Shown: positions 8,595 through 62,019, counted from the first letter of the stretch. The stretch: 64,000 bases of DNA from Jiangellaceae bacterium (GCA_036374835.1 DASUTB010000005.1:32708-96707); one strand, 5' to 3'. Notes: a model not told the origin generated them from the sequence alone. A program made the numbers and translations.

Positions 8595-8667
8595 GGGCCG
8601 CTAGCTCAATTGGCAGAGCTGTGGACTTTTAATCCATAGGTTCGGGGTTCGAGTCCCCGGCGGCCCA
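8595..8667 (+). tRNA. tRNA-Lys (anticodon UUU)
   Basis: Cloverleaf folded by hand. Acceptor stem GGGCCGC pairs with GCGGCCC, anticodon loop is CTTTTAA, T-loop is TTCGAGT, discriminator A. Confidence 0.85.
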
Positions 8668-8685
8668 CAGGCCCACAGGCCCACC
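8662..8685 (+). repeat. Tandem GGCCCACA x3 (third unit degenerate), overlapping and extending the tRNA-Lys 3' end
   Basis: Read directly: cggcccacaggcccacaggcccacc. Confidence 0.6.
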
Positions 8686-29806: not shown

Positions 29807-29930
29807 GTGACGTAAGGTGCCGTGCCCAGCCGATCCTCCGGCCGGTTCGACGCATGTTTCTCACCTGATCGCCACCGACGTGGCGATCAGGTGAGCGATC
29901 CGCCCTTACGAGCCGTCCCGGAGCGCCGCG

Positions 29931-30197
29931 TCACACGTTGAGGTGTGCCGGCTCGTGCGTCACGTCCTCGATCTCACCGGCAGCCTTGTCGAGGAGCTCG
30001 TGCACGAGGTGCGACAGCGCGCGAGCCGTCGCGATCTCCTCGCCGATCTGCGGCCTTGCCGGGTCGGAGGGGTTGCGGCGCGCGTGGCCGTTCGCGGTCA
30101 GCTCCGTACCGTCGGCGAGGTGGATCGTCGCCTTGGCGTCGGTGCGAGTGTCGTCCTCGGTGAACGTGACGGTGACCGTCCATTGTCCGGTCTTCAT
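29931..30197 (-). CDS. DUF1876 protein, Rv1738/Rv2632c dormancy-associated family
   Basis: 88 aa, aligns with Mtb Rv1738 as I recall it (WTV...NP.D...IGEEIATARALS.L...H.IE.VTH.PA). GGAGGTG ribosome-binding site before the ATG. Confidence 0.8.
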   Translation of the reverse strand: MKTGQWTVTVTFTEDDTRTDAKATIHLADGTELTANGHARRNPSDPARPQIGEEIATARALSHLVHELLDKAAGEIEDVTHEPAHLNV

Positions 30198-30282
30198 GGT
30201 TTCTTCACCTCCGGATATCTACTTTGTGAGGCATCTACGGACTTTGGCCGGGCTGCAGGCGCCGTTTGGCCGGGGCTTCGGC

Positions 30283-30299
30283 GCTTAACGTGATCATTC
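30283..30299 (-). repeat. Box copy 1: GAATGATCACGTTAAGC, 10 nt past the baeRF stop
   Basis: Read directly. Mini-ORF MITLSAEAPAKRRLQPGQSP. About 60 nt of extended similarity to copy 6. Confidence 0.7.
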
Positions 30300-30309
30300 G
30301 AGGGGGCAC

Positions 30310-31506
30310 CTACCAGCGGAGTAGGGCGCCGATACCGTCCGTGTCGGCGAGCGGCTCGGCGGCCGAGCCGTCCAAGACCGTCACCCGGGCGCCTTCGCGC
30401 AGCGCCATGTCGATCATGCGTTCGTCAAGGCGGGGCTCAGGCTCCAACGCCTGCGGGTCGACGTCCGGCACGGTCTCGGACTCGGCGACGAGCCGGCCGT
30501 CCGGCGTTCGGTTGCCCGTCCACGCCCCGTCCGCCGACAGCAGCAGGTGCGCCACACGCCCCTCGTTCAAGGCTGCGAGTGTTCTGGACAGCCCGCACGA
30601 GCCGCCGTCACTGTTGTCGCTCATCGCGGCGTTGCGCACCCGTTCGGCCAGCCGCCCGTAGCGTGCGATGCGTGCTTTATCGAGCGGTTCGCGGACCACA
30701 CCGGCAAGCTTCGTAGCCGACAGCGACGTCCCCGTGTGATGCGTCCGGACGACGTCCGCGCCGAGGTGCTCGGGGATGGTCTCGGCCACGGCGTGCACGT
30801 TCTTGGGGTCGCCCGCGATCACGACACATTCCCAGCCGAACTCGCGCGCATGGTCGGCGACGCGCGGACCGAGCGTGTGCAGGTATTGGAGCAGCCGATC
30901 CTCTTCCCGCTTGTCGAACAGGTCGTGATGCGAGGCGCTGCTGTGATGCGTCGTCGTCGGGGTGGCGTGGCCCTTTCCGGTTAGCTCGCGCCGGTCGGCG
31001 AGGTCCTCCGGATGTGCGATCGTCGCCACCTCGGTCACCGAACCCATGCGTATGTCCACGAGACGGACTTCGTGCGCGCCGACGGCGACGCATCCGGCCG
31101 GCGGGGCGGCACTCCACGCTGTCAGCAGCGGTCGCAGCGCGGGGCGAGGTCCCATCTCCACCTGATCCGACAACGGCATCTGAACGGTCAGCCTTTCGAC
31201 ATGACCGTTGCTGAGCGTTGCGAACATGGCCCTACCGCGGCCCGGTGCGCGGGCGTCCAGCACCGCTTCGACGTCCTGGTTCAGCTCGTTGAGCCGGTTG
31301 CCGATCGTCGAGAAGCGGTCCCGTGGGCTGGACTTGCGAAGCTCGTCCCGCAGCCGCTTCAAGTCCTTGCGGACCCGGGCCTGCCACGCGGGTTGCGATC
31401 CCTCGTCGGTGGGATCCGCCGTGGCGTACAGCGACAGCACACCGATGTCGTCACTCATATCCGCCAGGCCGCGTAACGTCGCCCAATCGAGAGACACGGT
31501 GCTCAC
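30310..31506 (-). CDS. eRF1-domain (baeRF/Rv2629-like) protein
   Basis: 398 aa. Call rests on overall resemblance to the mycobacterial Rv2629-like peptide-chain-release-factor-like family. Confidence 0.55.
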   Translation of the reverse strand: MSTVSLDWATLRGLADMSDDIGVLSLYATADPTDEGSQPAWQARVRKDLKRLRDELRKSSPRDRFSTIGNRLNELNQDVEAVLDARAPGRGRAMFATLSNGHVERLTVQMPLSDQVEMGPRPALRPLLTAWSAAPPAGCVAVGAHEVRLVDIRMGSVTEVATIAHPEDLADRRELTGKGHATPTTTHHSSASHHDLFDKREEDRLLQYLHTLGPRVADHAREFGWECVVIAGDPKNVHAVAETIPEHLGADVVRTHHTGTSLSATKLAGVVREPLDKARIARYGRLAERVRNAAMSDNSDGGSCGLSRTLAALNEGRVAHLLLSADGAWTGNRTPDGRLVAESETVPDVDPQALEPEPRLDERMIDMALREGARVTVLDGSAAEPLADTDGIGALLRW

Positions 31507-31591
31507 CCCCTACGGCTCGCGCGTCTACTCTCGTATCCCGAGGTTACGCTTTGCCGGCGGGGTCCGTCCCTAGGTTGGCCGGGCAAACTTG

Positions 31592-32677
31592 CTATGGCCG
31601 CTTGGCGCCCACGAACGGTTTGTACGACCCGCCGGCCTGCATGGCAGGAGCGGTGGTCACGTCCGTGCGCGGATTGGACGCGTGCACGACCGTTCCGTTC
31701 CCGATGTACATCGCGACATGGCTGATCGGGCTGCCATAGAACAGCAGATCACCAGGGGCCAATTCGTTGGCCGATACGGGAGTGCCGACGCCGTATTGCG
31801 CACTCGATGACCGGGGAAGACCGACGCCGACGGTGCCGTATGCCCAGCTCGTCAGGCCGGAGCAGTCGAAGGCGTCCGGCCCCGCGGCACCGTAGGAGTA
31901 GGGGTAGCCGACTTTGGAGAGCGCCGCTTGGACCGCGGCAGTCGCCCGCTCGCCGGCTGTGACATCGGCTCCGTCGTCGACATCGGCCCCGTCGTCGGTG
32001 GCCGTGATCCGGTGCGTGGCTTCGGACCGGTCCGCCTTAGCGGCTGCGCGTTCGCGCTCCTCCCGCCGGCGCAGTTCGGCCTGCTGCTCGGCGGTGAGCC
32101 GCTCGAGCAACTCCTGTTGTTGGGCGAGCAACTCCTCGACCGAGTTGCGTTCGGCTCGAAGCGTCGCTTCGATGTGCTCGAGGCGGCGCTCCTGCTCGGC
32201 GGCCATGAGTCTGGCCTGCTCGAGCGAGATCCGCTCGGCGGCGAGCGTCTCGAGCCGGTCGTTCTGCAGTTTCGCAAAGGCGTCCAACGTGGACGCGTCG
32301 GCAAGGTACTGGCCGATGTCGTCGGACAGCAGAGCCGAAACCGCAGGTTCGACGCCGGCGCCTCGGTAGACCGCGGCGGCGAACCCGCCGACCTCAACGG
32401 TCAGCGCGTCGAGACGTTCGGTCTGGCGATCAACTCGCGACTTGGCGCGGTCCAGTTCGCGCTGGGCGTCGGCAAGCTGTTCGGAGGCGATGTTGTGCCG
32501 CTCGTTGGCTTCGGCGGCCTTGGCATGGAGTCTGTCGACCTGGGTCTGGACCTCGTCGAGAGTCGGCTGCGGGTCGGCCCCGACGGCCGAGCCGCCGATC
32601 ACCGCCATGGCCGAAGCGGCGCTGGCGGCCACGACGATCCGGGCAAGGTGCAGTCGATTGCGGGGCTGTTGTGGCAC
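31592..32677 (-). CDS. NlpC/P60 (C40) peptidoglycan endopeptidase with N-terminal coiled coil (RipA-like)
   Basis: Catalytic motif DCSGLTSWAY plus H/H. Signal peptide. GTG start. Confidence 0.85.
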   Translation of the reverse strand: MPQQPRNRLHLARIVVAASAASAMAVIGGSAVGADPQPTLDEVQTQVDRLHAKAAEANERHNIASEQLADAQRELDRAKSRVDRQTERLDALTVEVGGFAAAVYRGAGVEPAVSALLSDDIGQYLADASTLDAFAKLQNDRLETLAAERISLEQARLMAAEQERRLEHIEATLRAERNSVEELLAQQQELLERLTAEQQAELRRREERERAAAKADRSEATHRITATDDGADVDDGADVTAGERATAAVQAALSKVGYPYSYGAAGPDAFDCSGLTSWAYGTVGVGLPRSSSAQYGVGTPVSANELAPGDLLFYGSPISHVAMYIGNGTVVHASNPRTDVTTAPAMQAGGSYKPFVGAKRP

Positions 32678-32689
32678 CGCGGGTCACCC

Positions 32690-32840
32690 TTCCTTCCGCG
32701 TCCGCCTACCGAGTTAGCTGACGGGTTTGGGCGGGGAAGGCGCCCTTCGGCCACCGGTGGCGGCCGACTCACCCCGGGGAAGTGATGGGTCCCCGGTTCC
32801 AGCCTTTGGGCCGGATTCGGCGGGAAGCGAGCTGTCGGTC
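32690..32840 (-). ncRNA. c-di-AMP riboswitch (ydaO/yuaA class) in the leader of the NlpC/P60 gene
   Basis: Transcript-sense sequence GAAUCCGGCCCAAAGGCUGGAACCGGGGACCC...CCCCGGGGUGAGUCGGCC...GGCCGAAGGGCGCC...CCCAAACCCGUCAGCUAACUCGGUAGGCGG matches the hallmark ydaO blocks as I recall them (GAAUCCGG, GGGGUGAAUC, CCCGAACCCGUCAGCUAACCUCGUA). This riboswitch class is known to precede rpf and NlpC/P60 genes in Actinobacteria. Confidence 0.65.
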
Positions 32841-32915: not shown

Positions 32916-32932
32916 GAATGATCACGTTCGGT
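32916..32932 (+). repeat. Box copy 2: GAATGATCACGTTCGG, heading an ~85-bp element (32916-33000)
   Basis: Read directly. Internal palindrome gtagcttcacgaggcatgc/atgcctggtgaagctat. Confidence 0.7.
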
Positions 32933-33031
32933 ATGTCTCACGTAGCTTCACGAGGCATGCATGCCTGGTGAAGCTATGTCACTCCTGGTGAAGTGTTCGG
33001 CGCAGCGGCAAACGGCGCTAGGGTGTGCGAC

Positions 33032-35097: not shown

Positions 35098-35181
35098 ATC
35101 GCGAGCAGCGTTGCCGGCACTTTGCTGGGCGGATGCCGCCGTTGCTCGGTCTGAAGGCATCGTATGGCTGGGAAATACCGG

Positions 35182-35197
35182 CCTTACGTGGTCATTC
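35182..35197 (-). repeat. Box copy 7: GAATGACCACGTAAGG
   Basis: Read directly at the 3' end of the small ORF. Confidence 0.6.
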
Positions 35198-44924: not shown

Positions 44925-47054
44925 TTACCCCCTCCGCAGTTGCGTCCGCTCGATCAGTGTCTGGTGCATGTCCGCCAGCGGCCGGCCGTCGGGCGCCATG
45001 TTGACCCGTTGCCAGCTGCCGTCGCGGCGCAGGTGCCAGGACGACGTCTCCGGGCTGAATGCCAGCTCGAAAAGGTCGTCGAGCATCGCGTGCTGCTCCG
45101 GCTGGACGAGGCGGACGAGCACCTCGACCCGCCGGTCCAGATTGCGGTGCATCATGTCGGCCGAGCCGATCCAGAACTCGGGTTCGCCCCCGTTCTCGAA
45201 CGCGTAGATCCGGGAGTGCTCGAGGAACCGCCCGAGCACGCTGCGCACCCTGATGTTCTCCGACATGCCGGTGACGCCCGGACGCAGTGAGCAGATGCCG
45301 CGCACGAGCAGATCCACCGGTACGCCGGCCGTCGAAGCCGCGTAAAGCGCGTCGATCACAGCTTCGTCGACGAGGCTGTTGAGCTTGAACCGGATCCGGG
45401 CGGGCCGTCCTGCCCGGTGGTGCTCGATCTCGCGGCCGATCCGTTCGACGATCCCGGTTCGCAGCGAATGCGGCGCCACCAGGAGCCGGTTGTAGTCGGA
45501 CTCGATGGAATACCCGGACAGCGAGTTGAACAGGTGGTTGACGTCCGCGGCGACGTCCGGATCGGCGGTGAGCAGCCCGAGATCCTCGTAGATGCGTGCC
45601 GTGCGCGGGTGGTAGTTGCCGGTTCCGATGTGGGTGTAGCGCCGGATGCCGCCGGCGGCCTGTGCCTCGTCCCGCACGACCAGGCACAGCTTGCAGTGCG
45701 TCTTGAGCCCGATCATGCCGTACACGACGTGGACGCCCGCTTCCTCCAGCTTGCGTGCCCACGTGATGTTCGCCTGCTCGTCGAAACGGGCCTTGATCTC
45801 GACGAGGGCGAGCACCTGCTTGCCCGCCTCGGCCGCGTCCACGAGGGCGTCCACGATCGGCGAGTCACCGCTCGTCCGGTACAGCGTCTGCTTGATCGCC
45901 AGCACCCTCGGGTCGGCGGCGGCCTGTTCGATGAAGCGCTGGACGCTCGTGGAGAACGAGTCGTACGGATGGTGGGCGAGGATGTCGCTGCGCCGGATCG
46001 CGGCGAACATGTCCGCCGGCGCGGCCGACTCGACGTCCGGCAGATCGCGGTGCGTCGCCGGCAGGAATGGGCGGTATTTGTGCTCGGCCCGGTCGAGCGC
46101 CGCGATGTCGGACAACCCGGACAGGTCGAGTGGCGCGGGAAGCTGGAACGTCTCGGCATCGCTGACGCCCAGCTCGCGCTGCAGCAACGACAGCACGTGC
46201 GGATCGACGGTGTCCTCGACCTCGAGCCGGACGGCCGGCCCGAACCGGCGCCGCGTCAGCTCCCGCTCCATCGCCGTCAGCAGGTTCTCCGCGTCGTCCT
46301 CCTCGACTTCGAGGTCCTCGTTGCGGGTGACCCGGAAGGTGTGGTGCTCGAGGATATCCATGCCGCGGAACAAGGACGACAGGTGCGCGGCGATCACGTC
46401 CTCGAGCGGCACGAACCGCTGCTCGGCGACGGCGAGGAACCGCGGGAAATTCGGCGGCACCTTGACGCGGGCGAAGTGCTCGGTTCCGGTACGCGGGTTG
46501 CGCAGCGCCACGGCCAGGTTCAGCGAGAGGCCGGAGATGTACGGGAACGGGTGGGACGGGTCGACCGCCAGTGGTGTCAGCACGGGAAAGATGCGCTCGC
46601 TGAACATCACCCCGAGGGAGGATCGCTCCGGGTCGTCGAGGTCGTCCCAGCGCACGAGCTCGATTCCCTCTTTGACCAGATTCGGCAGCACGTCACCGTG
46701 GAACGCCTTGGCATGCCTCGCCATCAGGTCGCGGGTGCGGCTGAGGGTGTTTTCGAGCACGTCGCGCGGCAGCAGACCGCTGGCGGCGGGGACGGCGACC
46801 CCGGCCGCGATCCGCCGGCGCAGGCCGGCGACCCGCACCATGTAGAACTCGTCGAGGTTGTCGGCGAAGATGGCGAGGAAGTTGGCTCGTTCGAGCAGCG
46901 GCTGGTCCGGATCCTCGGCAAGGTCGAGCACGCGGGTGTTGAACTCCAGCCAGGACAGCTCGCGGTCGAGGTAGCGCTCCTGCGGCGGCTCGGCCTCCGT
47001 GCGCCCCCGGTCTGCGGCGTGCGCAGACTGGTCGGTGGCCGCCGGCTCGGTCAT
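44925..47054 (-). CDS. ppk: Polyphosphate kinase 1
   Basis: PPK1 N, H, C1 and C2 domains (e.g. [19 protein letters not shown]). Start trimmed to MTEPAATDQ at 47054. Confidence 0.9.
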
Positions 47055-47100
47055 ACCCCTGATAGTGGCATGCAAAGGTGAACAGGAAGTAGCCAATCTC

Positions 47101-47156
47101 CCATGATCATGTTCATTCAACCCTGGATTTCTTGGGTTGATTGAACATGATCATGG
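47101..47156. promoter_or_regulatory. 23-bp near-perfect inverted repeat CCATGATCATGTTCATTCAACCC-N10-GGGTTGATTGAACATGATCATGG between the mshD stop and the ppk start
   Basis: Read directly; one mismatch between the arms. Confidence 0.45.
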
Positions 47157-48020
47157 GGAGGTGGCTGCGTATTGGACGTCGATCCCCGTCCTGACGAAGC
47201 CGAGCGACGAATACAGCGACCGCGCCGGCGTGCTGGATTCTTCGACATACAGCATCGCCTCGTGCACCCCGGTATCGCGGAGATGGTGCAGGCCGATCAG
47301 CGTCAGCGCCCGGCCGAGCCCGGTGCCCTGCTCGTCGGGACGGACTCCCAGCACGTACACCTCGCCGCGCCCGGGCTCGGCGATCTTCGTCCAATGGAAT
47401 CCGGCCATCCGCCCGTTCCGCTCGGCGACGAAAAAGCCCCCGGGGTCGAACCACGGCTGGGCCATGAGGCTTCGGAGATCCTCCAGCGTGACCGAACCCT
47501 GCTCGGGATGGTCGGCGAACGCATCGGCGTTGACCGCGAGCCAAGGGCCGTCGTCCGGGCCGGGGTCGAAGGTTCGGATGGTGACGCCCTCGGGCAGCTC
47601 GGGAACCGGGAGCGGCGCCTCGAGCGGCCGGGTCATCTGCCACAGCGCGCGGGCCCTGGTCAGCCGGGCCGATGCGGCGAGTGCCCGGGCGGCGGGAAGG
47701 TCGCCGTGCGCCCAGACCCGCGCCGTCGGTCGTTGGGTTAGCAGCTCATCGAGCAGTTCCCGGCCGTGGCCGCGGTTGCGGTGCGCCGGACGAACGGCCA
47801 GTTCAGCGCTGCCGTCCGGGTCCAACTGCGCGTAGCCGGCGAGTTCGCCACCCGTCGCCGAGGCGATCAGATGGGTGACGGCGCCGCTCCCGATGTTGAC
47901 GAGAGCACGATCGGATGCCGGTCGGACGCCGTCCTCCGCTTCGGCGGCGCCGATCAGGGCACGGACGCGAGCCTGCCGGTACTCCGTCAGCGGATCGGTC
48001 GTGACGAGCACATCAGCCAC
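47151..48020 (-). CDS. mshD: Mycothiol synthase MshD (tandem GNAT domains)
   Basis: Two acetyltransferase folds; neighbourhood with glnR as in mycobacteria. Confidence 0.8.
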   Translation of the reverse strand: MADVLVTTDPLTEYRQARVRALIGAAEAEDGVRPASDRALVNIGSGAVTHLIASATGGELAGYAQLDPDGSAELAVRPAHRNRGHGRELLDELLTQRPTARVWAHGDLPAARALAASARLTRARALWQMTRPLEAPLPVPELPEGVTIRTFDPGPDDGPWLAVNADAFADHPEQGSVTLEDLRSLMAQPWFDPGGFFVAERNGRMAGFHWTKIAEPGRGEVYVLGVRPDEQGTGLGRALTLIGLHHLRDTGVHEAMLYVEESSTPARSLYSSLGFVRTGIDVQYAATSP

Positions 48021-50357: not shown

Positions 50358-51052
50358 GCTCGCCGCAGTGCCGCGCGATCCGGCTCGAACTCGGCGCGTA
50401 CGTGCTCGGGCTACTCGATGCCGGCGACGAGCAGCGGGTCCGCGAACACCTCGTCCGGTGCGACGAATGCGCGGTCGAAGCGGCGTCGTTGCGCGAGACG
50501 AGTAAGGTGTTGGCGCTCACCGATGTGGGCCTGGTGGAACAGCCGGCCGAGCCGTCACCTGAGGTACTGCCCAAGTTGCTCCAGCGGATCGCCGCGGCGC
50601 GCCGGCGCCGCCGGATCGCTGGGGTCGTCGCGGCGGCCGCCGCTGCTGCGGTCGTGACGGTGGGCGGCATCGCGTTCTTGGACGCGGCCGACGACTCGCC
50701 CGGCGCGAGCGTTGAAGCCGGCGACGTGAGCACCGAGCCGGCGGTGACGACGTCCGGCCGGGACGGCACCGTTGCGGTCGAGGTGGACGTCTGGGATCGT
50801 GACTGGGGCTCGAAGCTCACGGTCGACGTCTCCGGCGTTCCGGCCGGCTACCGCTGCAGCCTCATCGCGATCGGCGGCGACGGCCGGCGCGAGACCGCGG
50901 CGACATGGGTCGTGCCGAGCGCCGGATACAACGAGGGCGGCGGCGGTCTGACAATGGACGGCGCACACGGTCTGCGGTACTGGGAAGTCGACCGGTACGA
51001 GGTAGTCACGTCCGACGGTGAGCTGCTCGTCACGCTCCCGCTTGTCGATTGA
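50354..51052 (+). CDS. Zinc-dependent anti-sigma factor (HxxxCxxC), membrane-spanning
   Basis: HLVRCDECAV motif and a transmembrane segment. Start overlaps the sigma-factor stop (ATGA). Stop codon lies inside box copy 3. Confidence 0.75.
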   Translation: MSSPQCRAIRLELGAYVLGLLDAGDEQRVREHLVRCDECAVEAASLRETSKVLALTDVGLVEQPAEPSPEVLPKLLQRIAAARRRRRIAGVVAAAAAAAVVTVGGIAFLDAADDSPGASVEAGDVSTEPAVTTSGRDGTVAVEVDVWDRDWGSKLTVDVSGVPAGYRCSLIAIGGDGRRETAATWVVPSAGYNEGGGGLTMDGAHGLRYWEVDRYEVVTSDGELLVTLPLVD

Positions 51053-51063
51053 TCACGTTCGGT
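51047..51063 (+). repeat. Box copy 3: GATTGATCACGTTCGG, heading an ~89-bp element (51047-51135) with 25-bp terminal inverted repeats
   Basis: Inverted repeats 51045-51069 and 51111-51135 read directly. About 80% identical to the 32916-33000 element. Confidence 0.7.
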
Positions 51064-51177
51064 AGGAGTGACGTAGCTTCACGAGGCATGCGGGCCTAGG
51101 GAAGATACGACACTCCTGCCGAACGTGATCAATCGACATCGGGAACAGACGTTGGCGGCGAGTGCGTTGAGGCGAGC

Positions 51178-53207: not shown

Positions 53208-53503
53208 GCTGCGCAGCGCCGGAGGGGGGCGCGTCTCTCGAAGGAGTCGATGTCGGATCCGAGGCGGTCATCCAGGGTGTCGTGAAGGCCGGTGGCGGCC
53301 CGGTCGGCGGTGCGTACGTCCGGCTGCTGGACCGCAGCGGCGAGTTCACCGCGGAGGTGCCGACCGGCGACGGCGGCGAGTTCCGCTTCTTCGCCGCACC
53401 GGGCGAGTGGACGCTGCGCACGCTCGCTCCAGGCATCGAGCCTGTCGACCAGCCGGTGCAGGCGTCGCTCGGCGCCGTGGCTGACGTCGAGATCACCGTC
53501 TGA
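53204..53503 (+). CDS. DUF1416 (SseC-like) protein
   Basis: Translationally coupled to the rhodanese (ATGA). Mtb-like cysA2-sseC2 pairing. Confidence 0.7.
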   Translation: MSCAAPEGGASLEGVDVGSEAVIQGVVKAGGGPVGGAYVRLLDRSGEFTAEVPTGDGGEFRFFAAPGEWTLRTLAPGIEPVDQPVQASLGAVADVEITV

Positions 53504-53518
53504 ATGACCACGTTAAGC
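53502..53518 (+). repeat. Box copy 4: GAATGACCACGTTAAGC, fused to the SseC stop (cTGAATGAcc), followed by a 17-bp hairpin
   Basis: Read directly. Mini-ORF MTTLSR. Flanking inverted repeats at 53518-53534 and 53556-53572. Confidence 0.7.
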
Positions 53519-53618
53519 CGGTGATTCCCTGCTTCACGCTCGCTACAGGACGTGTAAAGCAGGGAATCACCGCGCATCGGCCGCCCGGCCACAAGCGCCG
53601 GCACGTAGTCTGACGTCC

Positions 53619-54266
53619 GTGTTGGATCGATGGGTCGAGGACGATCGTCCCGCACTTCCTCTTGTCGTGGCCGTGCTGACCATGTGCGCGATCGCCGGCT
53701 TCGTTTTCGGTGGCGTCCTTGCCTCGCTTCCGGCATCCGGCGGCGGCTCCGCGGATCCGAGCCAGAGCCCGACGGCGACTGAACCGGTCATGGTCGAGGT
53801 CGCCGGTGTGGAGGCTTCGTGCCAGCGCGAGCCCGCACAGGACCATGCCGGCGAGACGGTCGAGTACCTGCCGGAGTTCGTGCACGATGGTGATTCGCAG
53901 ACGGCGTGGCAGTGCCGCGGTGACGGTGCCGGCGAGACGCTGACGTTCGCCCTCGACGAGCCGGCGCCGATCGCCGAGCTCGGCATCGTCCCCGGCTACG
54001 CGAAGGTCGATCCGACCGAGGACACGGACTGGTACCCGCGCTATCGGCGCCTCACCGAGGTCCGCTGGCATTTCGACGAAGGTGATCCGGTCAGCCATGT
54101 GCTCGACCCCGATCCGGAACTACGCGAGCCGCAGTTCATGACGCTGGACGAGGCACGTACAACGTCGACGCTCACGATGGAGATCGTCAGCAGTGAGCTC
54201 GGAACGGACGACTGGCGGAACATGGCCGTCACCGAGGTCGTGATCATGGCATGTGACCGTTGCTAG
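53619..54266 (+). CDS. Hypothetical membrane-anchored protein
   Basis: GTG start; N-terminal transmembrane segment then a soluble domain. Confidence 0.5.
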   Translation: MLDRWVEDDRPALPLVVAVLTMCAIAGFVFGGVLASLPASGGGSADPSQSPTATEPVMVEVAGVEASCQREPAQDHAGETVEYLPEFVHDGDSQTAWQCRGDGAGETLTFALDEPAPIAELGIVPGYAKVDPTEDTDWYPRYRRLTEVRWHFDEGDPVSHVLDPDPELREPQFMTLDEARTTSTLTMEIVSSELGTDDWRNMAVTEVVIMACDRC

Positions 54267-54321
54267 GTGCTCACCGGCGATGCTGGACGGGTAGGTAAGG
54301 GCGGTTGGCTGGGGAGCGGGC

Positions 54322-54338
54322 GCTTTACGTGATCATTC
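54322..54338 (-). repeat. Box copy 5: GAATGATCACGTAAAGC
   Basis: Read directly. Extended similarity to copy 6 (…AGCGCC…CCCCAGCCAA…). Confidence 0.65.
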
Positions 54339-54410: not shown

Positions 54411-55049
54411 GTGGCGGAGTTCCTGGAAACGGCGATCAGCTTTCCGGTCGCCGTGTTCGGCGTGTTGCTCGTCATCGTCATCGGCTACTGGCTGATCGTG
54501 CTGCTCGGTGTCGTCGGGGAGGGGCTGTTCGACGGCGACGTGCCCGACAGCGACGTCGGCATGGCCGGGATGCTCGGTGCCGTCGGACTCGGCGGCGTGC
54601 CGATCGCCGCCGTCCTGTCGTTGTGGATCGCGTTCGGCTGGTTCGGCAGCTTCATCGGGGTCGTGTTTCTCGGCGACGTCGACGCTCTGGACGAGTTCGC
54701 CGAACCGTTGACGGCCGCCGGTGTGCTGGTGCTCGCCATCGTCGCCGGCTATGCGGCGACCTACCTGCTCGTCATCCCACTGCGCCGGCTCATGCCACGA
54801 CCCGATCCACCGCCGCAGCGCAGCGACCTGGTGGGACGCACCTGCGTCGTCCGGACGACCACCGTGGATCACCAACACGGGCAAGCCGAGGTCACCGCCG
54901 AGGATGGCTCATCGGCCGTTATCCAGGTGCGGCAGACCGGTGGTGAGCCGCTTCATGCCGGCAGCAGTGCGCTCATCTTCGACTACGACGCTGACGGCGA
55001 GTACTTCTGGATCACCGTGGCGCCTTCCCATCTACACCCCGAGACGTAA
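54411..55049 (+). CDS. NfeD-family membrane protein (C-terminal OB-fold)
   Basis: GTG start. Transmembrane N-terminus and the conserved partner position upstream of an SPFH protein. Confidence 0.75.
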   Translation: MAEFLETAISFPVAVFGVLLVIVIGYWLIVLLGVVGEGLFDGDVPDSDVGMAGMLGAVGLGGVPIAAVLSLWIAFGWFGSFIGVVFLGDVDALDEFAEPLTAAGVLVLAIVAGYAATYLLVIPLRRLMPRPDPPPQRSDLVGRTCVVRTTTVDHQHGQAEVTAEDGSSAVIQVRQTGGEPLHAGSSALIFDYDADGEYFWITVAPSHLHPET

Positions 55050-55057
55050 GGAAGACC

Positions 55058-56980
55058 ATGCAATCGACTCTTACCGCGGCGGGCTTGCTGGTCGCCGTCG
55101 TCGTCCTCATTCTGCTCGGCCTGGTGCTCATCGTCACCAGGCTGTACAAGAAGGTGGAGCAGGGCCGTGCCTTGATCATTTCCAAGATCCGCGGCGTATC
55201 CGTCACGTTCACCGGCGCCATCGTGCTGCCGGTGTTCCACAAGGCCGAGTACATGGACATCTCGGTCAAGACCATCGACATCGAGCGGACCGGTCACGAG
55301 GGCCTGATCTGCAAGGACAACATCCGCGCCGATATCCGCATCACATTCTTCGTCCGAGTGAACAAGACCGTCGAGGACGTCGTCAAGGTGGCCCAGGCGA
55401 TCGGCACGCACCGGGCCAGCGACCAGGAGACGCTGCAGGAGCTGTTCAACGCCAAGTTCTCCGAAGCCCTCAAGACCGTCGGTAAGCAGCTGGACTTCGT
55501 CGACCTCTACACCAAACGCGACGAGTTCCGGGACTGGATCATCCGGGTCATCGGTACCGACCTGAACGGTTACAGCCTCGAGGATGCCGCGATCGACTAC
55601 CTCGAGCAGACGCCGATGTCCCGGCTGGATCCGGCCAACATCCTGGACGCGCAGGGCATCCGCAAGATCACCGAGCTGACCGCGCTCGAAGCGATCCGGA
55701 CCAACGACTACCAGCGCAACAAGGAGAAGGAAGTCACCCGGCAGGACGTCGAAGCACGCGAGACGATACTCGAACTCGAGCGGCAGCAGGCCGATGCGGA
55801 GATCAAGCAGCGCCGAGAGGTCGAGACGATGCGGGCCCGCGAGGAAGCCGAGATCGAAAAGGTCCAGGCCGACGAGCGGCTCAAGGCGCAGGGCGCGGCC
55901 ATCCGCACCGAGGAGCAGCTCGGCATCCAGCGGGAGAACCAGCAGCGCGAGATCGCGGTGGCCGAGCTCAACAAGCAGCGCGTCGTGGCCATCGAGACCG
56001 AGAAGATCGAGAAGGATCGCCAGCTCGAGGTCGTCAACCGCGATCGAGAGACGGCGCTGGCGACCATCGAGAAGGACAAAGAGGTCGAGACCGAGAAGCG
56101 CTCGGTGGCCGAGATCGTCCGCGAGCGCGTCGCGGTCGACAAGACCGTCGCGGAGCAGGAGGAGAACATCAAACGGGTCCGCACCGTCGAGGAGGCGGAG
56201 CGGAACCGCGAGGCCACGGTGATCGCCGCCGAGGCGCAGGCGCAGGAGCAGCTCGTCAAAGACATCAAGGCGGCCGAGGCGGCCGAGCAGGCGGCCCAGC
56301 ACCGCGCTCGCGAGGAGCTGACGCTCGCCGAGGCGCGGCAGCAGGCCTCGGATCTGGACGCCCGCGCCAAGATCCGGCTGGCCGAAGGTGTTCAGGCCGA
56401 GGTGGCCGCGGCCGGCCTGGCCGAGTCCCAGGTGATCACCGAGAAGGCGGCCGCGATGGCGGCACTGGACGAGGCGAGCCGCTCGCACGAGGAATACCGG
56501 CTCCGGCTCGATATGGAAAAGGAGCTCCGGCTGGCCGGGCTGGACGTGCACCGCCAGGTCGCCGAGGCGCAGGCGTCGGTCATCGCCGCCGGGCTGGAGA
56601 ACGCGGACATCGACATCGTGGGCGGCGAGAGTGTGTTCTTCGACCGGCTGGTCGGCTCGATCACGCTCGGTAAGAGCCTGGACGGGCTCGTCGAAGGCTC
56701 GGACGTCGCGCAGCGGCTCGCCGGTTCGTGGCTCAACGGCGACTCCGACTTCGTCGAGGACATCCGCCACATGCTCGGTTCGGTCGGCACCGACGACGTC
56801 AAGAACATGACCGTCTCGGCACTGCTGCTCAAACTCATGAAGGATGGCGGTCCGGGCGCCGACCAGCTTCAGCGCCTGTTGGACGCCGCACGTGAGCACG
56901 GCGTCGCCGACCAGAAGATCGCGGCGCTGGCCAATCCGGCGGACGACGGACCGTCCGAGCCGGCCACGGCGAAGACGTGA
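55058..56980 (+). CDS. Flotillin-family SPFH/Band-7 protein (YqiK/FloT-like) with long EA-rich coiled coil
   Basis: N-terminal transmembrane segment plus SPFH domain. 640 aa. Confidence 0.85.
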   Translation: MQSTLTAAGLLVAVVVLILLGLVLIVTRLYKKVEQGRALIISKIRGVSVTFTGAIVLPVFHKAEYMDISVKTIDIERTGHEGLICKDNIRADIRITFFVRVNKTVEDVVKVAQAIGTHRASDQETLQELFNAKFSEALKTVGKQLDFVDLYTKRDEFRDWIIRVIGTDLNGYSLEDAAIDYLEQTPMSRLDPANILDAQGIRKITELTALEAIRTNDYQRNKEKEVTRQDVEARETILELERQQADAEIKQRREVETMRAREEAEIEKVQADERLKAQGAAIRTEEQLGIQRENQQREIAVAELNKQRVVAIETEKIEKDRQLEVVNRDRETALATIEKDKEVETEKRSVAEIVRERVAVDKTVAEQEENIKRVRTVEEAERNREATVIAAEAQAQEQLVKDIKAAEAAEQAAQHRAREELTLAEARQQASDLDARAKIRLAEGVQAEVAAAGLAESQVITEKAAAMAALDEASRSHEEYRLRLDMEKELRLAGLDVHRQVAEAQASVIAAGLENADIDIVGGESVFFDRLVGSITLGKSLDGLVEGSDVAQRLAGSWLNGDSDFVEDIRHMLGSVGTDDVKNMTVSALLLKLMKDGGPGADQLQRLLDAAREHGVADQKIAALANPADDGPSEPATAKT

Positions 56981-59900
56981 CCGCCACGCTCGACGCCGGC
57001 ACATATGAGCTGCTCCGGACCCGGCTGGCCGAGCATGCGGGCGAGTTGGCCAGACGGGCCGAACAGCTCAATCAGCGGCGGATCGAGGTGTTCGGTGGCA
57101 CCGAGCTGACGCTGGTCGGCACCGAGCGGATCCGCACCGAGAACAACTGCGTGCCGCGCGACATCGTGCCGCTCGGTGGCGACCGAGATCTCCTTCTGCT
57201 CGGCTACAACGTGTTCATCGGGCTCAAGCCGGAGACGACCGTCGGCGACGTCTTCGCGGTGCACGAGTTCCGCCGCGGCGACGATGGCGGGTTCAGCTTC
57301 GAGCCGGTCGGGACGGACGTCCTGCTCGACGAACAGTTCGAGCGGGACTTCGCCGAGCTCTACCGGTACTACCGCGACACCCGGCTGATGCAGTTGCGCC
57401 GAACCGGGCCATCGGTGCTCGCGGTGTTCCAGACCGGTCCCAACGACGACGACATCCGGGTGTTGCGCTGGCGCATCGGCGAGAACGGCGCCCTGACCTA
57501 CGTCGACAACCGCGGCGAGCGGGAGAACGTCCTGCCGCCCTCGCACGACTTCGAGTGGACCGAGACGACCCGCGAGGATCACGTTCCCGGCAGGTACCCG
57601 CACATCTCGATCGAGGACGAGGTGTTCGTCGACACGCTCGGCGGCGATCTCACGGTCTCGGTCGAGAACAACACCGAAACCGGTGAGGGCATCTACCGCG
57701 AGCCGGTGACCGAGCCGCTGCAGAGCCTGGCCGACGCCGACGTCCACTACGCCCGGGTCGGCCCGCTCATCCTGCTCCGGATCCGCCCCTACAACGAGAC
57801 CGAGTGGCGGCACCTCGTCTTCAACACCCGCACCCACGGCGTCGTCCGGCTCGACGGCATCGGGCAGGCCTGCCAACGGCTACCCGAGGATCACGGCATC
57901 ATCTTCCCTGGCGGCTACTACCTGGCCACCGGGGTCTCCCGCACGTTCGACACGGACGTCACCAACCTGGAGTTCCAGCGGTTGATCCGGTCGCCGAACG
58001 GCGAGGACGTGCTCTACGTCTTCCACGCTCGCGCCGAGGGCCGATCGCTACTGCTGCCGTACAACGTGATCCGCAAACAGGTCGACACACCCATCTACTG
58101 CCACGGGTACTCGGTCTTCGGCGACGGCACCCTTGTGGTCTTCCGGGCCACGTCCGACGAGCCGACCCGGGTCCATCCCATGCAGGTGTGGCGGTCGCCA
58201 TACATGTCGGAAAGCTACGCCGCCAGCCAGCCTGCCGGGACCGGTCCGCTCGAGCGCGTCGGCAACGCGGACCTGGTGCGCGGTATCTCGGACTGCCTGT
58301 CGGTGACGCGCATGCTGGACGAGATGGCGCCGTCCACGCCGGTCTTCGAAGGGATCATCGCGGCCTGCCGCAGGGTGGCCGATCAGTTCCACTGGCTCGA
58401 CGACCCCGAGCTGTTCTCGCTCGGTGAGCCGCTGCGGGAGGTACGGTCCGCCGCCGAGCAGGTGCTCGGTGAGCTCGAGACCGTCGAGGCGCTGACCGCC
58501 CAGGCCGCGACCGCGCTGGACGAGGCCGAGGCGGACATCGCGTCGCTGGTCCGACGCGTTCGGGGCGAGGCGCCCCGGGCAGCGTCGGCCTGGGTCAGTC
58601 AGCTGGCCGAGCTACACCGCGCCGAGGGCCATCTTGTGACGCTGCGCGAGCTGCGCTACGCCGACGTCGAACGCATCGACGAGCTGGCCGCATCGCTGGA
58701 GGCCGACGTCGCCGATGCGGCGAAGCGGGCCGTCACATTCCTGCAGCGCGACGACGCGTTCGCCGATTACCACAGGGAGGTCGAACGGCTCGCCGGCGCG
58801 GCGACGGAAATCCGTACCGTCGCCGAGGCCGCGCCCGTCGACGAAGAGCTCACCGAACAGGCCGAAGCGCTGGCGATCGTCACCGAAGTGGTCGGCACCC
58901 TGGACATCGCCGACGCCACCGTGCGCACGGCCATCCTCGGCCGCATCAGCGAAGTGTTGGCCGGCGTCAATCGGACGCGAGCGGTGCTCGCGGCCCGGCG
59001 TCGTGAGTTGCTCGAGGCCGAGAATCGCGCGGCGTTCGCCGCCGAATTCGCACTGCTCGGGCAGGCCGTGTCGAGCGGGCTGGCACTGGCCGACACCCCG
59101 GAGGCGTGCGATGAGCAGCTCGGCAGGCTGCTGCTGACGCTGGAGAACCTCGAAGCGCGATTCGGTGAGTTCGACGACTTCATGGCCGACCTGGAGGCCA
59201 AGCGGGAGGACGTCTACGAGGCGTTCTCGGCGCGCAAGCAGGCGCTGCTGGACGAACGCGCCCGGCGCGCGGGGCGACTCGCCGAATCGGCCGACCGGAT
59301 CCTCGGCAGCGTCCGGCGTCGAGTCGGGTCGCTCGGGTCGCTGGACGAAGTGAACACCTACTTCGCCTCTGATCCGATGGTGGCCAAGCTGCGGTCGCTG
59401 GCCGACGACCTGCGTGAACTCGGCGACCTGGTCCGGGCCGAGGAGCTCGACGGACGGATTAAGGCGGCTCGGCAGGAAGCGGCACGGGCGCTACGCGACC
59501 AGCTCGACCTTTACGAAGGCAACACGATCCGGCTCGGCCGGCACCGGTTCGCCGTCCACTCGGAGCCGATCGAGCTGACGATGGTGCCCGGCGTGCGACC
59601 GGCCGCTGGCGCGTCCGCTCCCACTGATCACACGGGCGGCTCCGCCGCGGTTGACGCCGTGATGAACTTCGTGCTGACCGGCACCGATTACCGCGCGCCG
59701 GTGCACGACGAGGCGTTCGCGGCGACGCGGCGGTTCTGGGACCAGCTGCTGGTCTCCGAGTCACCCGACGTGTATCGCGGCGAGTATCTCGCGTCGACCA
59801 TCCTGGCCGCCGCGAGCGAGGGCCGGGACGGGCTGTCTCTCGACGGCCTGCATGAGGCGGCGGTCGTGGACGGCGGCCTGCTCGACGTGGTGCGCAGCGT

Positions 59901-62019
59901 CGCGGCCGACCGCTACGACGAGGGCTATGAACGCGGCGTGCACGACGAGGACGCCACCGCGATCCTCGAGGCGCTGCTGCGCCTGCACGCCGGCGCGGGC
60001 GTGCTGCGGTATCCGCCGGACGTGCGCGCGGCGGTGCAGCTGTACTGGGCGTTCGGCGCCTCGGACGACGACAAGGCGTCCTGGGTCGCCCGCGTGGGCT
60101 CGCTCGCGCGGGCGCGCGCCGCGTTCGGGCATGCCAGCGGGATCGCCGAGCTGTGCGCTGAGGCCGGTGGTGCGGTGGCGTCATTCCTCGGCGGAAACCT
60201 GGGTGAATCCACTGTCGCTATAGGTGCAGCAGATTCACCCGGGATCGTTCCGCGCCTGCCGTCTCTTACCGGATCGCGGGCGTCGCTCGCCGGTGAGTAT
60301 CTCTTCGAGGAATTGGCGAGCCAGCCGGACGGGTTCGTGACCGGTGCGGCGGCCAAGCGCCTGCTGCGGCGGTTCCAGCGCAAGCTCGGGGGTGCCCGGT
60401 CGGTATCGCGGCGGGCGTTGGACGGTGAGCTGCGCGCGCTCAGCGACGATCTGGCGGCCCGCCATCAGCTCCTCACGGCGTGGCTGAGCTCCTATGTCGC
60501 GGCTGCGGACGGCGCGGAACCGGCCGCCGAGGCGGACCTGGCCGAGGCGGTGACGCTGGAGCTGTGCGGCCGCGAGGTGACGCACTACGATTCGTCGGCC
60601 GAGCTGGAGGCGACGGTCGAAGGCTTGCTCGGCACGCACCGGCGAATCGCGGACCGCACCATGACGCTACGGCTGGACGAGACGTTGGCCCGCACGCGTG
60701 AGTTCCGGATCGAGCGGGTGCCCGCCTACCGCGACTACCAGCGGCAGCGAAACGCCCTTGTCGAGGCCGAGCGGTCGCGCCTACGTGTGGGCGAGTACCA
60801 GCCCGGTGTGCTCGCCGGCTTCGTCCGCAACCAGCTGCTTGACCAGGTCTATCTGCCGCTGATCGGGGACAACCTGGCCAAGCAGCTCGGCACCGCCGGC
60901 GACGACAAGCGCACCGATCTGTCCGGTCTGCTGATGCTGATCTCACCGCCGGGCTACGGCAAGACCACACTGATGGAGTACCTGGCGAACCGGCTCGGAC
61001 TGGTTTTCGTCAAGGTCAACGGGCCGGCGCTCGGGCATGGTGTCACGTCCATCGATCCGGCGGACGCGCCGAACGCCACCGCGCGCCAGGAAGTCGAGAA
61101 GATCTCCTTCGCGCTGGAGATGGGCAACAACGTGCTGCTGTATCTGGACGACATCCAGCACACGTCGCCGGAGCTGCTGCAGAAGTTCATCTCGTTGTGC
61201 GACGCGCAACGCCGGATGGAGGGCGTCTGGGACGGCCGGACGCGCACCTACGACCTGCGGGGCAAGCGGTTCGCCGTATGCATGGCCGGCAATCCGTACA
61301 CCGGGGCCGGACGGCGGTTCCGGGTGCCGGACATGCTGGCCAACCGGGCCGACGTGTGGAACCTGGGCGACGTGCTGGCGGGGCGGGACGAGCTGTTCGC
61401 GCTGAGCTACATCGAGAACTCTCTGACGTCCAACGCGGTGCTGGCGCCGCTCGCCGGACGGTCGGTCGCCGACCTCAAGCTGCTGCTGCGGCTGGCCCGC
61501 GGCGACGACTCCGCAAGCCCGGACCAGTTGGAGCACAGCTACCCGCCTGCCGAACTCGACCAGGTGCTCGCGGTCCTCGGCAAACTGACCCATGTGCAGC
61601 AGGTGGTGCTGGCGGTGAACCAGGCCTACATCGCGTCCGCCGCGCAGGCGGACGCCTCCCGCACCGAGCCGCCGTTCCTGCTGCAGGGTTCGTACCGCAA
61701 CATGAACCGGCTCGCCGAGCGCATCGTGCCGGCCATGAACGACGACGAACTGGCCGCGCTGATCGACGACCACTACGCCGGGGAGGCCCAGACGCTGACG
61801 TCCGGCGCGGAGGCGAACATCCTGAAGCTGGCCGAGCTACGTGGCCGCCTCACGCCGGAGCAAGCTGAACGCTGGGCTGAGGTAAAGGCCGGCTATCTGC
61901 GGGAGAGGGCGCTCGGCGGTGCCGAGGACGACCCGATCACCCGTGCCGTCGGTGCCGTCGGCCTGCTCGCCGACCAGGTCGCCGCCGTCGAATCCGCCAT
62001 CCGTTCCCACTCAGAATGA
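56977..62019 (+). CDS. Giant (1680 aa) uncharacterised protein with C-terminal AAA_5 (MoxR/dynein-like) ATPase module
   Basis: Start overlaps the flotillin stop (GTGA). Walker A LISPPGYGKTTL, Walker B VLLYLDDIQH, sensor-1-like CMAGNP. N-terminal ~450 aa and the central helical region have no obvious family. Confidence 0.8.
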   Translation: MTATLDAGTYELLRTRLAEHAGELARRAEQLNQRRIEVFGGTELTLVGTERIRTENNCVPRDIVPLGGDRDLLLLGYNVFIGLKPETTVGDVFAVHEFRRGDDGGFSFEPVGTDVLLDEQFERDFAELYRYYRDTRLMQLRRTGPSVLAVFQTGPNDDDIRVLRWRIGENGALTYVDNRGERENVLPPSHDFEWTETTREDHVPGRYPHISIEDEVFVDTLGGDLTVSVENNTETGEGIYREPVTEPLQSLADADVHYARVGPLILLRIRPYNETEWRHLVFNTRTHGVVRLDGIGQACQRLPEDHGIIFPGGYYLATGVSRTFDTDVTNLEFQRLIRSPNGEDVLYVFHARAEGRSLLLPYNVIRKQVDTPIYCHGYSVFGDGTLVVFRATSDEPTRVHPMQVWRSPYMSESYAASQPAGTGPLERVGNADLVRGISDCLSVTRMLDEMAPSTPVFEGIIAACRRVADQFHWLDDPELFSLGEPLREVRSAAEQVLGELETVEALTAQAATALDEAEADIASLVRRVRGEAPRAASAWVSQLAELHRAEGHLVTLRELRYADVERIDELAASLEADVADAAKRAVTFLQRDDAFADYHREVERLAGAATEIRTVAEAAPVDEELTEQAEALAIVTEVVGTLDIADATVRTAILGRISEVLAGVNRTRAVLAARRRELLEAENRAAFAAEFALLGQAVSSGLALADTPEACDEQLGRLLLTLENLEARFGEFDDFMADLEAKREDVYEAFSARKQALLDERARRAGRLAESADRILGSVRRRVGSLGSLDEVNTYFASDPMVAKLRSLADDLRELGDLVRAEELDGRIKAARQEAARALRDQLDLYEGNTIRLGRHRFAVHSEPIELTMVPGVRPAAGASAPTDHTGGSAAVDAVMNFVLTGTDYRAPVHDEAFAATRRFWDQLLVSESPDVYRGEYLASTILAAASEGRDGLSLDGLHEAAVVDGGLLDVVRSVAADRYDEGYERGVHDEDATAILEALLRLHAGAGVLRYPPDVRAAVQLYWAFGASDDDKASWVARVGSLARARAAFGHASGIAELCAEAGGAVASFLGGNLGESTVAIGAADSPGIVPRLPSLTGSRASLAGEYLFEELASQPDGFVTGAAAKRLLRRFQRKLGGARSVSRRALDGELRALSDDLAARHQLLTAWLSSYVAAADGAEPAAEADLAEAVTLELCGREVTHYDSSAELEATVEGLLGTHRRIADRTMTLRLDETLARTREFRIERVPAYRDYQRQRNALVEAERSRLRVGEYQPGVLAGFVRNQLLDQVYLPLIGDNLAKQLGTAGDDKRTDLSGLLMLISPPGYGKTTLMEYLANRLGLVFVKVNGPALGHGVTSIDPADAPNATARQEVEKISFALEMGNNVLLYLDDIQHTSPELLQKFISLCDAQRRMEGVWDGRTRTYDLRGKRFAVCMAGNPYTGAGRRFRVPDMLANRADVWNLGDVLAGRDELFALSYIENSLTSNAVLAPLAGRSVADLKLLLRLARGDDSASPDQLEHSYPPAELDQVLAVLGKLTHVQQVVLAVNQAYIASAAQADASRTEPPFLLQGSYRNMNRLAERIVPAMNDDELAALIDDHYAGEAQTLTSGAEANILKLAELRGRLTPEQAERWAEVKAGYLRERALGGAEDDPITRAVGAVGLLADQVAAVESAIRSHSE

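Follow-up and report, generated by a model that had tools for sequence, protein, structure and literature searches.

The 79-nt element that fills the intercistronic gap between a Balon-like baeRF gene and an Rv2632c-like gene in this Jiangellaceae genome probably belongs to a family of interspersed DNA repeats, small, non-coding and intergenic, that is specific to Jiangellales, and this reading gives the best explanation of the observations as a whole. The hallmark of the family is a 17-nt terminal box, GAATGAYCACGTWARGC. In the 64,000-nt stretch of DNA analysed here (hereafter the window), a 34-nt profile detected 8 box ends, which make up 7 elements; every one of these is intergenic and lies between 30 and 62 kb of the window (Table 1). 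We retain the numbers 1, 5 and 6 given to three box copies in the initial annotation, and loci outside the window are designated by L numbers.

Table 1. Repeat elements of the window and the genes that flank copies 1 and 6 (A-type, solo-arm form; B-type, palindromic form).
Feature	Coordinates	Strand	Description
A-type repeat, copy 1	30221-30299	-	HMM 61 bits; box 30299-30283, then GCCGAAG, CCCCGGCCAAAC and tail
B-type repeat	32916-33005 (end approximate)	+	intact left box, central hairpin, degenerate far end; z -3.2
A-type repeat	35119-35197	-	HMM 58.6 bits; fold z -0.70; between convergent genes
B-type palindrome	51047-51134		box at both ends (GATTGATCACGTTCGG ... CCGAACGTGATCAATC); -69.6 kcal/mol, z -13.6
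A-like repeat, still folding	53502-53580	+	HMM 48.5 bits; z -6.1; left arm pairs with tail
A-type repeat, copy 5, diverged	54256-54338	-	HMM 43 bits; fold z +0.67
A-type repeat, copy 6	62014-62092	+	HMM 62.9 bits
Rv2632c/Rv1738-like gene (PF08962)	29931-30197	-	immediately downstream of copy 1
baeRF family 10 gene, MSMEG_1130/Balon-family homolog	30310-31506	-	stop codon 10 nt before copy 1 box
1680-aa DUF3686/AAA protein gene	56977-62019	+	ends on TGA within copy 6 box
GatB/YqeY-domain gene	62101-62553	-	convergent on copy 6; protein 100% identical to a Jiangellaceae MAG protein

Copies 1 and 6 belong to a 79-nt sub-family

It had been noticed from the sequence that the similarity between copy 1 (minus strand, box 30299-30283) and copy 6 (plus strand, box 62014-62030) extends beyond the box to about 60 nt, and that copy 5 shares it more weakly. 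The sequences of both copies were found as quoted. In a repeat search of the 64-kb window, the arms 30222-30299 and 62014-62091 formed the longest inverted pair (78 nt, 74% complementary), and therefore the homology is longer than the 60 nt first proposed. Read in the same orientation, 30221-30299 (-) and 62014-62092 (+) are 74% identical over 78-79 nt, and the sub-family HMM sets the bounds of the two copies at 30299-30221 and 62014-62092, respectively. Outside the 17-nt box, 42 of the 64 aligned positions match (binomial P ~1e-9 at p = 0.29). This pair is not an exceptional one. Beyond the box its identity (66%) ranks 57th among 325 pairs and lies near the family mean (60 +/- 7%), so that the likeness of copies 1 and 6 is ordinary sub-family membership. 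Copy 5 did prove to be a weaker member, matching the HMM along 54338-54256 (-).

The initial annotation had also argued for a second, longer sub-family, and hence for a repeat element rather than a short protein-binding site alone. Both proposals were borne out, since at least 30 independent copies are present in related genomes and metagenomes and the conservation runs well past the box. A metagenome scan anchored on the box core plus YCCCRGCCA only yielded 25 A-type loci, in which ~45 nt past the anchor are conserved; conservation of this length past the search pattern was thus seen in further copies from both other genomes and metagenomes. Two additional A-type copies (L030 and L051) were retrieved by the core alone. 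The 79-nt HMM recovers five copies in the window, two of which, at 35197-35119 (-) and 53502-53580 (+), had not been reported before.

Distribution of the 17-nt box

At three or fewer mismatches the box occurs 7 times in the window, against 0.09 occurrences expected from shuffled sequences. It begins with GAATGA, and a TANNNT-type hexamer (TAACGT) can be read directly on its reverse strand. When the 17-nt core alone was searched with one genome per species, at least 56 loci were found; at least 27 among the matches listed come from Jiangellales, including Jiangella anatolica, J. endophytica, Jiangellaceae/Jiangellales MAGs and several multi-copy bins labelled uncultured Actinomycetota. The remaining listed matches are single, belong to unrelated phyla, share no flanks and are about as numerous as expected by chance. 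As judged from these matches, the repeat family is restricted to Jiangellales. The window itself is Jiangellaceae DNA, as shown by its YqeY protein, which has a 100% identical counterpart in an NCBI Jiangellaceae MAG.

No match to the element was found in a plasmid collection, and four hits to viral contigs were attributable to chance and lacked the element structure, so that a phage or plasmid origin was rejected. Rfam gave no family match to the repeat, neither for the whole window at the gathering threshold nor in permissive scans of three elements, the latter returning only meaningless microRNA-hairpin matches on the palindrome. A literature search produced no match to the box strings and nothing relevant on Jiangella repeats. 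Hence, the family is apparently undescribed and belongs to no described repeat family.

Solo-arm and palindromic forms

Two forms of the element can be distinguished. The A-type, or solo-arm, form spans ~79 nt and consists of the box, exactly 7 nt, YCCCRGCCAAAC and a ~45-nt tail with the consensus ..CTGCAGACC..GCAAAGCA.GGA....CCGCGCAAAGG, which includes GCAAAG between CTGCAGACC and CCGCGCAAAGG. The tail is rich in C (37% C, 27% G) and poor in T (11.5%). A-type copies are non-palindromic and unstructured, and in the window they comprise copies 1, 5 and 6, the copy at 35119-35197 and that at 53502-53580, the last of which still folds. When tandem units were sought within the A-type tail, only CCGCGCAAAG was found to be repeated in the consensus, and the score of individual copies did not rise above that of shuffled sequences.

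The B-type form is a 90-100-nt imperfect hairpin palindrome with the box as terminal inverted repeat, and its layout is GAATGAYCACGTTAAGC-AGG-N5-CCCCGC..stem-loop..GCGGGG-N5-CCT-GCTTAACGTGRTCATTC. The box is present at both ends in L012, L020, L035, L041, L052 and L065 as well as in the window element 51047-51134, the arms of which (51043-51087 and 51094-51138) are 89% complementary; in several MAG bins the right end is without the GCTTAAC heptamer. The second B-type element of the window, which starts at 32916, matches 51047-51123 at 82%. Fold z-scores of palindromic elements range from -3 to -16.

The two forms are related. Both carry the same 7-nt spacer followed by YCCC, and a right-hand inverted box is found on A-type copies in L070 and, in part, in L081 and L085. 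In L082 (885-1053), two A arms lie tail to tail in a ~170-nt palindrome that is bounded by the box (z -7). The window element 53502-53580 is an intermediate between the palindromic and the solo-arm forms. When its stem was projected on the alignment of 26 A-type copies, 53.5% of the cells were paired, compared with 27-36% in slid registers; the same alignment, however, did not differ from column shuffles, which placed it at 84 of 500 for the covariation score and at 101 of 500 for percent paired, and because the paired fraction equals that of the shuffles there is no covariation in this stem. Vestigial complementarity of the arms without covariation fits a descent of the A-type from palindromes. 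We infer that A-type copies are solo or decayed arms of once palindromic elements: long palindromes are unstable, and one arm would have decayed or been lost. On this view, copies 1 and 6 would owe their extended match simply to a common origin from the A-type consensus.

Two other variant builds were observed: L045 carries a tandem duplication of 'gggttgcGAATGATCACGTTAAG' at 1899-1950, and in the L094 ortholog of copy 1 (2656-2734) the box is followed by an inverted partial box, with which it forms an imperfect 17-bp hairpin, and then by an A-type tail.

Comparison with known interspersed repeats

The family behaves like the MITE, REP, ERIC and BOX-type interspersed repeats of bacteria, as an apparently undescribed one. 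Its elements are small (79-170 nt), non-coding, intergenic and multi-copy, with 7 of them in 64 kb. Terminal inverted repeats, as expected of a MITE, are present in 51047-51134 and in L012, L020, L035, L041, L052, L065 and L070, but not in the A-type copies of the window, including copies 1 and 6, which have the left box only and thus could not transpose as classical MITEs. No target-site duplication was detected, as there is no consistent direct repeat in the flanks of nine complete elements; in many cases the palindrome continues 2-4 bp into these flanks (e.g., 51043-51138). In the comparison of filled and empty sites for the 32916 element, the 8-nt sequence GTTTGCCG is found on both sides and is not adjacent to the ends. 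A search of the window and of ~0.6 Mb of loci revealed no transposase, no RAYT and no full-length IS with the box at its ends; the neighbours of the elements in the window are housekeeping genes.

Correia elements (CREE) of Neisseria and the pneumococcal RUP are small (<200 bp), non-coding, multi-copy intergenic repeats with terminal inverted repeats and hairpin potential, which are present in some lineages and absent from others and sometimes supply neighbouring genes with signals such as stop codons. The Jiangellales repeat shares all these features with them; it differs in its many one-ended solo arms and in having no sequence similarity to any described element, and neither a target-site duplication nor a cognate IS or transposase was found for it. 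With REP/BIME and ERIC (IRU) it has in common the imperfect intergenic palindromes, often at 3' ends or in convergent gaps, the mosaic forms, the persistence at some orthologous sites and the suspected host functions. REPs, however, are 20-40 nt long, begin with 5' GTAG and are mobilised by RAYT (TnpA-REP), whereas the Jiangellales repeat is 79-170 nt long, has a different 17-nt box and occurs only in Jiangellales; no GTAG motif was seen, and no RAYT-like gene lies beside the paired elements of L090 and L016. The L090 pair, two A copies in inverted orientation separated by 2.3 kb, brackets only housekeeping genes, namely purC and a gene for a serine hydrolase, and the L016 pair brackets a Clp_N-like ORF; a composite transposon was considered for both and rejected.

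The modular build, with a conserved end module and a variable interior, recalls the pneumococcal BOX element, and the A-type consensus holds CCGCGCAAAG twice, 20 nt apart. The position of copy 1 in the intercistronic gap of an operon and the overlap of elements with stop codons recall the mycobacterial MIRUs. Unlike BOX and MIRU, the Jiangellales repeat is not tandem, shares no sequence with them, and its weak internal direct repeat does not reach significance in single copies. Integron attC sites are likewise imperfect palindromes, of 60-140 nt, that follow ORFs, and here GTTAAGC fits GTTRRRY and its inverse GCTTAAC fits RYYYAAC. Each strand of the repeat, however, reads GTTRRRY ... RYYYAAC, whereas attC reads RYYYAAC ... 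GTTRRRY; with the heptamer order reversed, and with copies scattered among housekeeping genes and no integrase or cassette array, attC was discarded. A parS, LexA, DosR, ECF-promoter or dif site was also rejected because of misfits in spacing or symmetry and a wrong genomic distribution.

It may be proposed that the family spreads, or once spread, as a non-autonomous mobile element of the MITE/REP kind, with the box as the end that a transposase or recombinase acting in trans would recognise.

Genomic context

In 370 kb of Jiangellales DNA, 67% of which is coding, only 2 of 75 box ends overlapped a called coding sequence by more than 50%. The elements are almost exclusively intergenic, fill their gaps and usually abut stop codons. 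Copy and orientation statistics are based on ~36 copies and on crude, GC3-based gene calls. In ~18 of these 36 A-type copies, the gene upstream on the same strand ends within -13..+14 of the box start, in ~10 of them exactly on the TGA of the box itself, and the stop codon of a convergent gene is located at +78..+106. Copy 6 illustrates this arrangement, as the TGA of its box (62017-62019) is the stop codon of the 1680-aa gene, and the convergent gap is taken up by the element as far as the YqeY stop codon at 62101. In the copy at 35119-35197 the box contains the TAA stop of an 83-aa ORF. The other elements of the window occupy different contexts: copy 5 lies antisense between the co-directional plus-strand genes 53619-54266 and 54411-55049, and the 32916 element lies in the divergent gap between a UDG gene and an NlpC/P60 gene with a c-di-AMP riboswitch. 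Among the 20 A-type contexts that could be classified, ~9 are convergent, 2-4 co-directional sense, 3 co-directional antisense (among them copy 5 and the copy at purC-purS in L090) and 3-4 divergent. The neighbours are unrelated housekeeping genes (UDG, phosphatase, thioredoxin, rhodanese, purC/purS).

This variety of contexts, with unrelated neighbours, excludes the operator of a transcription-factor regulon, the more so as most copies are placed at 3' ends or between convergent genes, and it argues against a strand-specific RNA function. In practical terms, the ~80-100-nt blocks beside many stop codons in Jiangellaceae genomes and MAGs should be annotated as repeat copies, not as regulatory RNAs, and some ORF ends are set by the TGA or TAA of the repeat itself; the 1680-aa protein, for example, ends in ..SHSE* instead of ..SK*. 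The repeats could serve as a Jiangellales lineage marker, and filled and empty sites for strain typing, and the family is a likely source of assembly breaks.

Where a stop codon falls just outside the box (L067, L069, L070, L071, L083 and L084), it is TAA in ~6 of 9 cases, in DNA of more than 65% GC; this excess may reflect an insertion preference for A/T-rich stop-codon sequence, or the crude gene calls.

Gain, loss and persistence of copies

Filled and empty orthologous sites were found for two elements of the window. The 32916 element is missing from the orthologous UDG/c-di-AMP-riboswitch gap in L093 and L094, where ~100 nt are replaced by 8 nt. Copy 6 is present in a 94%-identical relative (L072), in which the box is identical at 17 of 17 positions and the rest differs by ~13%, and is absent downstream of YqeY in L095-L098; L096 keeps the synteny with the DUF3686/AAA gene, and there the protein ends in AIRSK* as compared with AIRSHSE* in the window. 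These data indicate that individual copies turn over, and being data of presence and absence they are compatible with either gain or loss at each site.

Copy 1 is found in the same baeRF/Rv2632c-like gap in L092, L093 and L094, that is, in four lineages including the window, between proteins with identities of 86, 80 and 70%, respectively. In L092 and L094 its box is intact at 16-17 of 17 positions, despite a divergence of 0.32 and 0.57 at 4-fold degenerate sites (the latter near saturation). When the window is compared with L092, the divergence is 14% over positions 1-36 of the copy and 47% over positions 37-79 (manual count). In L093 the box is broken by a 9-nt insertion. Retention of the box in copy 1 is not expected from the passive decay of a dead mobile element, and it points to a function in situ, to gene conversion between copies or to repeated re-insertion; the left end of copy 1 is either constrained or homogenised against other copies. 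The tie to the ribosome-binding site of the Rv1738-like gene, which the initial annotation had implied, is incidental across the family, but copy 1 itself is old and positionally conserved. The distance first given, 13 nt, needs correction, since the interval then delimited ends at 30241, 28 nt before GGAGG (30212-30208), and the 79-nt copy ends at 30221, 8 nt before this motif.

Box retention at the orthologous copy 1 site suggests that a host factor may also bind or use the box. In the stronger version of this idea, the element would be a host cis-element spread on a repeat, in which the box, perhaps with YCCCRGCCAAAC, is a putative protein-binding or mRNA-processing site kept through use, for instance in punctuating operons or 3' ends, and the binder of the box would be a DNA-binding or nucleoid-associated protein. 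We regard this as unlikely, while taking it more seriously than any other alternative. It is favoured by the conservation of copy 1 just described, by the identical box of copy 6 in L072 next to a diverged tail, and by the TANNNT-type hexamer. It is opposed by the broken box of the L093 ortholog, by the occurrence of copies in all intergenic contexts and orientations beside unrelated housekeeping genes, and by the coming and going of other copies between lineages; no partner protein was identified, and a sigma-70 scan found no promoter-like site.

More speculatively, and with a similarly low expectation on our part, the box and YCCCRGCCAAAC may be a recognition site under purifying selection, for a dedicated DNA- or RNA-binding protein, that has spread to hundreds of gene ends in Jiangellaceae, copy 1 being an exapted regulatory or processing element of the Balon-like/Rv2632c-like operon. 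If this were true, the family would amount to a network of punctuation or regulation that a transposon had seeded across the genome, rather than junk. Nothing in the repeat family overturns current ideas; what stands out is that the box has been kept for so long at the operon of a hibernation factor, past synonymous saturation, which hints that the cell uses at least part of the element.

Less likely readings: terminators or structured RNAs

The position of the elements beside stop codons and their enrichment between convergent genes could also be explained if they were transcription-termination modules, the palindromic copies acting as (bidirectional) hairpin terminators and the A-type copies as Rho-utilisation sites at gene ends. 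The B-type hairpins are very stable, and the A-type copies are C-rich, T-poor and unstructured, as this explanation would have it. We nevertheless consider it improbable. There is no U-tract, and a terminator scan found nothing at copy 1; A-type copies are also located antisense in co-directional gaps (purC-purS in L090, and 54256-54338) and in divergent promoter regions; and copy 1 itself lies inside an apparent operon that has a separate, probable hairpin terminator downstream, at 29860-29895. An intrinsic terminator in particular was rejected, because the A-type is without a hairpin and the B-type, which has one, closes with ..TCATTC or ..TCATTT and so lacks any run of five or more T.

A further proposal was that the repeat is an RNA motif, with a conserved hairpin at the CCCC(A/G)GCCAAAC tract. 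In its full form, this reading holds that the ~60-80-nt unit folds as a structured cis-regulatory RNA or sRNA and acts on the neighbouring mRNA. Copy 1 indeed occupies a conserved position in the Rv2632c-like 5' leader, and in this copy alone a 6-bp stem (GCGCCG/CGGCGC) encloses the CCCCGGCCAAAC tract. This stem is missing in copy 6 and in the consensus. RNAalifold gave no consensus pairs for the 26 A-type copies, and their mean MFE z-score against dinucleotide shuffles was ~-0.2 on both strands, with values of +0.97 and +0.36 for copies 1 and 6 (for the copies at 35119 and 54256, see Table 1). No covariation and no Rfam match was found, and antisense and divergent placements are common. The RNA motif was thus rejected on the results of RNAalifold, of the MFE shuffles on both strands and of the explicit stem derived from 53502, and we attach very little probability to it. 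The lack of above-chance structure in the A-type, together with the occurrence of every orientation relative to genes, speaks for a DNA repeat and not an RNA motif or a regulon operator. A small peptide encoded through the box (ATG-AYC-ACG-TTA-AGC; MITLSAEAPAK.. in copy 1 and MTTLSAETPAK.. in copy 6) was rejected because many copies have ACG-TAA at codon 4. Finally, a chance likeness of two GC-rich intergenic stretches, with the high G+C content (67%) as the sole point in its favour, is practically negligible and is refuted by the probability of the match beyond the box, by its rank as the longest inverted pair of the window and by the more than 30 further copies that fit the same 79-nt consensus.

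Other features of the neighbourhood

Homologs of the baeRF family-10 protein are named MSMEG_1130 family ribosome hibernation factor (Balon family; PMC10901736). L092-L094 keep the gene order NlpC/P60 - baeRF - Rv2632c-like. In all four lineages, the 85 nt that precede the baeRF gene (31507-31591) are strongly conserved (..CCTAGGGACG..GCGCGTAACCTC..CATACGAGAGTAGACGCGCGAGCCGYAGGGGGTGAGCACCGTG), and this conservation suggests a promoter or a leader. Further upstream, a c-di-AMP (ydaO) riboswitch (32688-32832, minus strand, 75.9 bits) precedes the NlpC/P60-domain gene (31592-32677), and it is kept in L093 and L094. Just downstream of the Rv2632c-like gene, a perfect 16-bp hairpin at 29860-29895 (CTCACCTGATCGCCAC-4 nt-GTGGCGATCAGGTGAG), which has no T-tract, is probably the terminator of the operon.

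The tRNA-Lys(TTT) and tRNA-Pro(CGG) genes of the window are located at 8595-8668 and 63630-63704, and no repeat copy adjoins either of them. A separate palindrome at 47091-47166, with 33-nt arms that are 85% complementary (AGCCAATCTCCCATGATCATGTTCATTCAACCC / GGGTTGATTGAACATGATCATGGGGAGGTGGCT), overlaps both the end of one gene and the start of the next, that for polyphosphate kinase (44925-47120, minus strand); it contains the vaguely box-like sequence GAACATGATCATG, which does not match the box profile. In the region 55058-62019 (+), a gene for a 640-aa protein without a Pfam match overlaps by 4 nt the start of the 1680-aa DUF3686/DUF7902/AAA gene. The L094/L095 organism lacks this pair on its syntenic contig, so that the pair may be a variable island.
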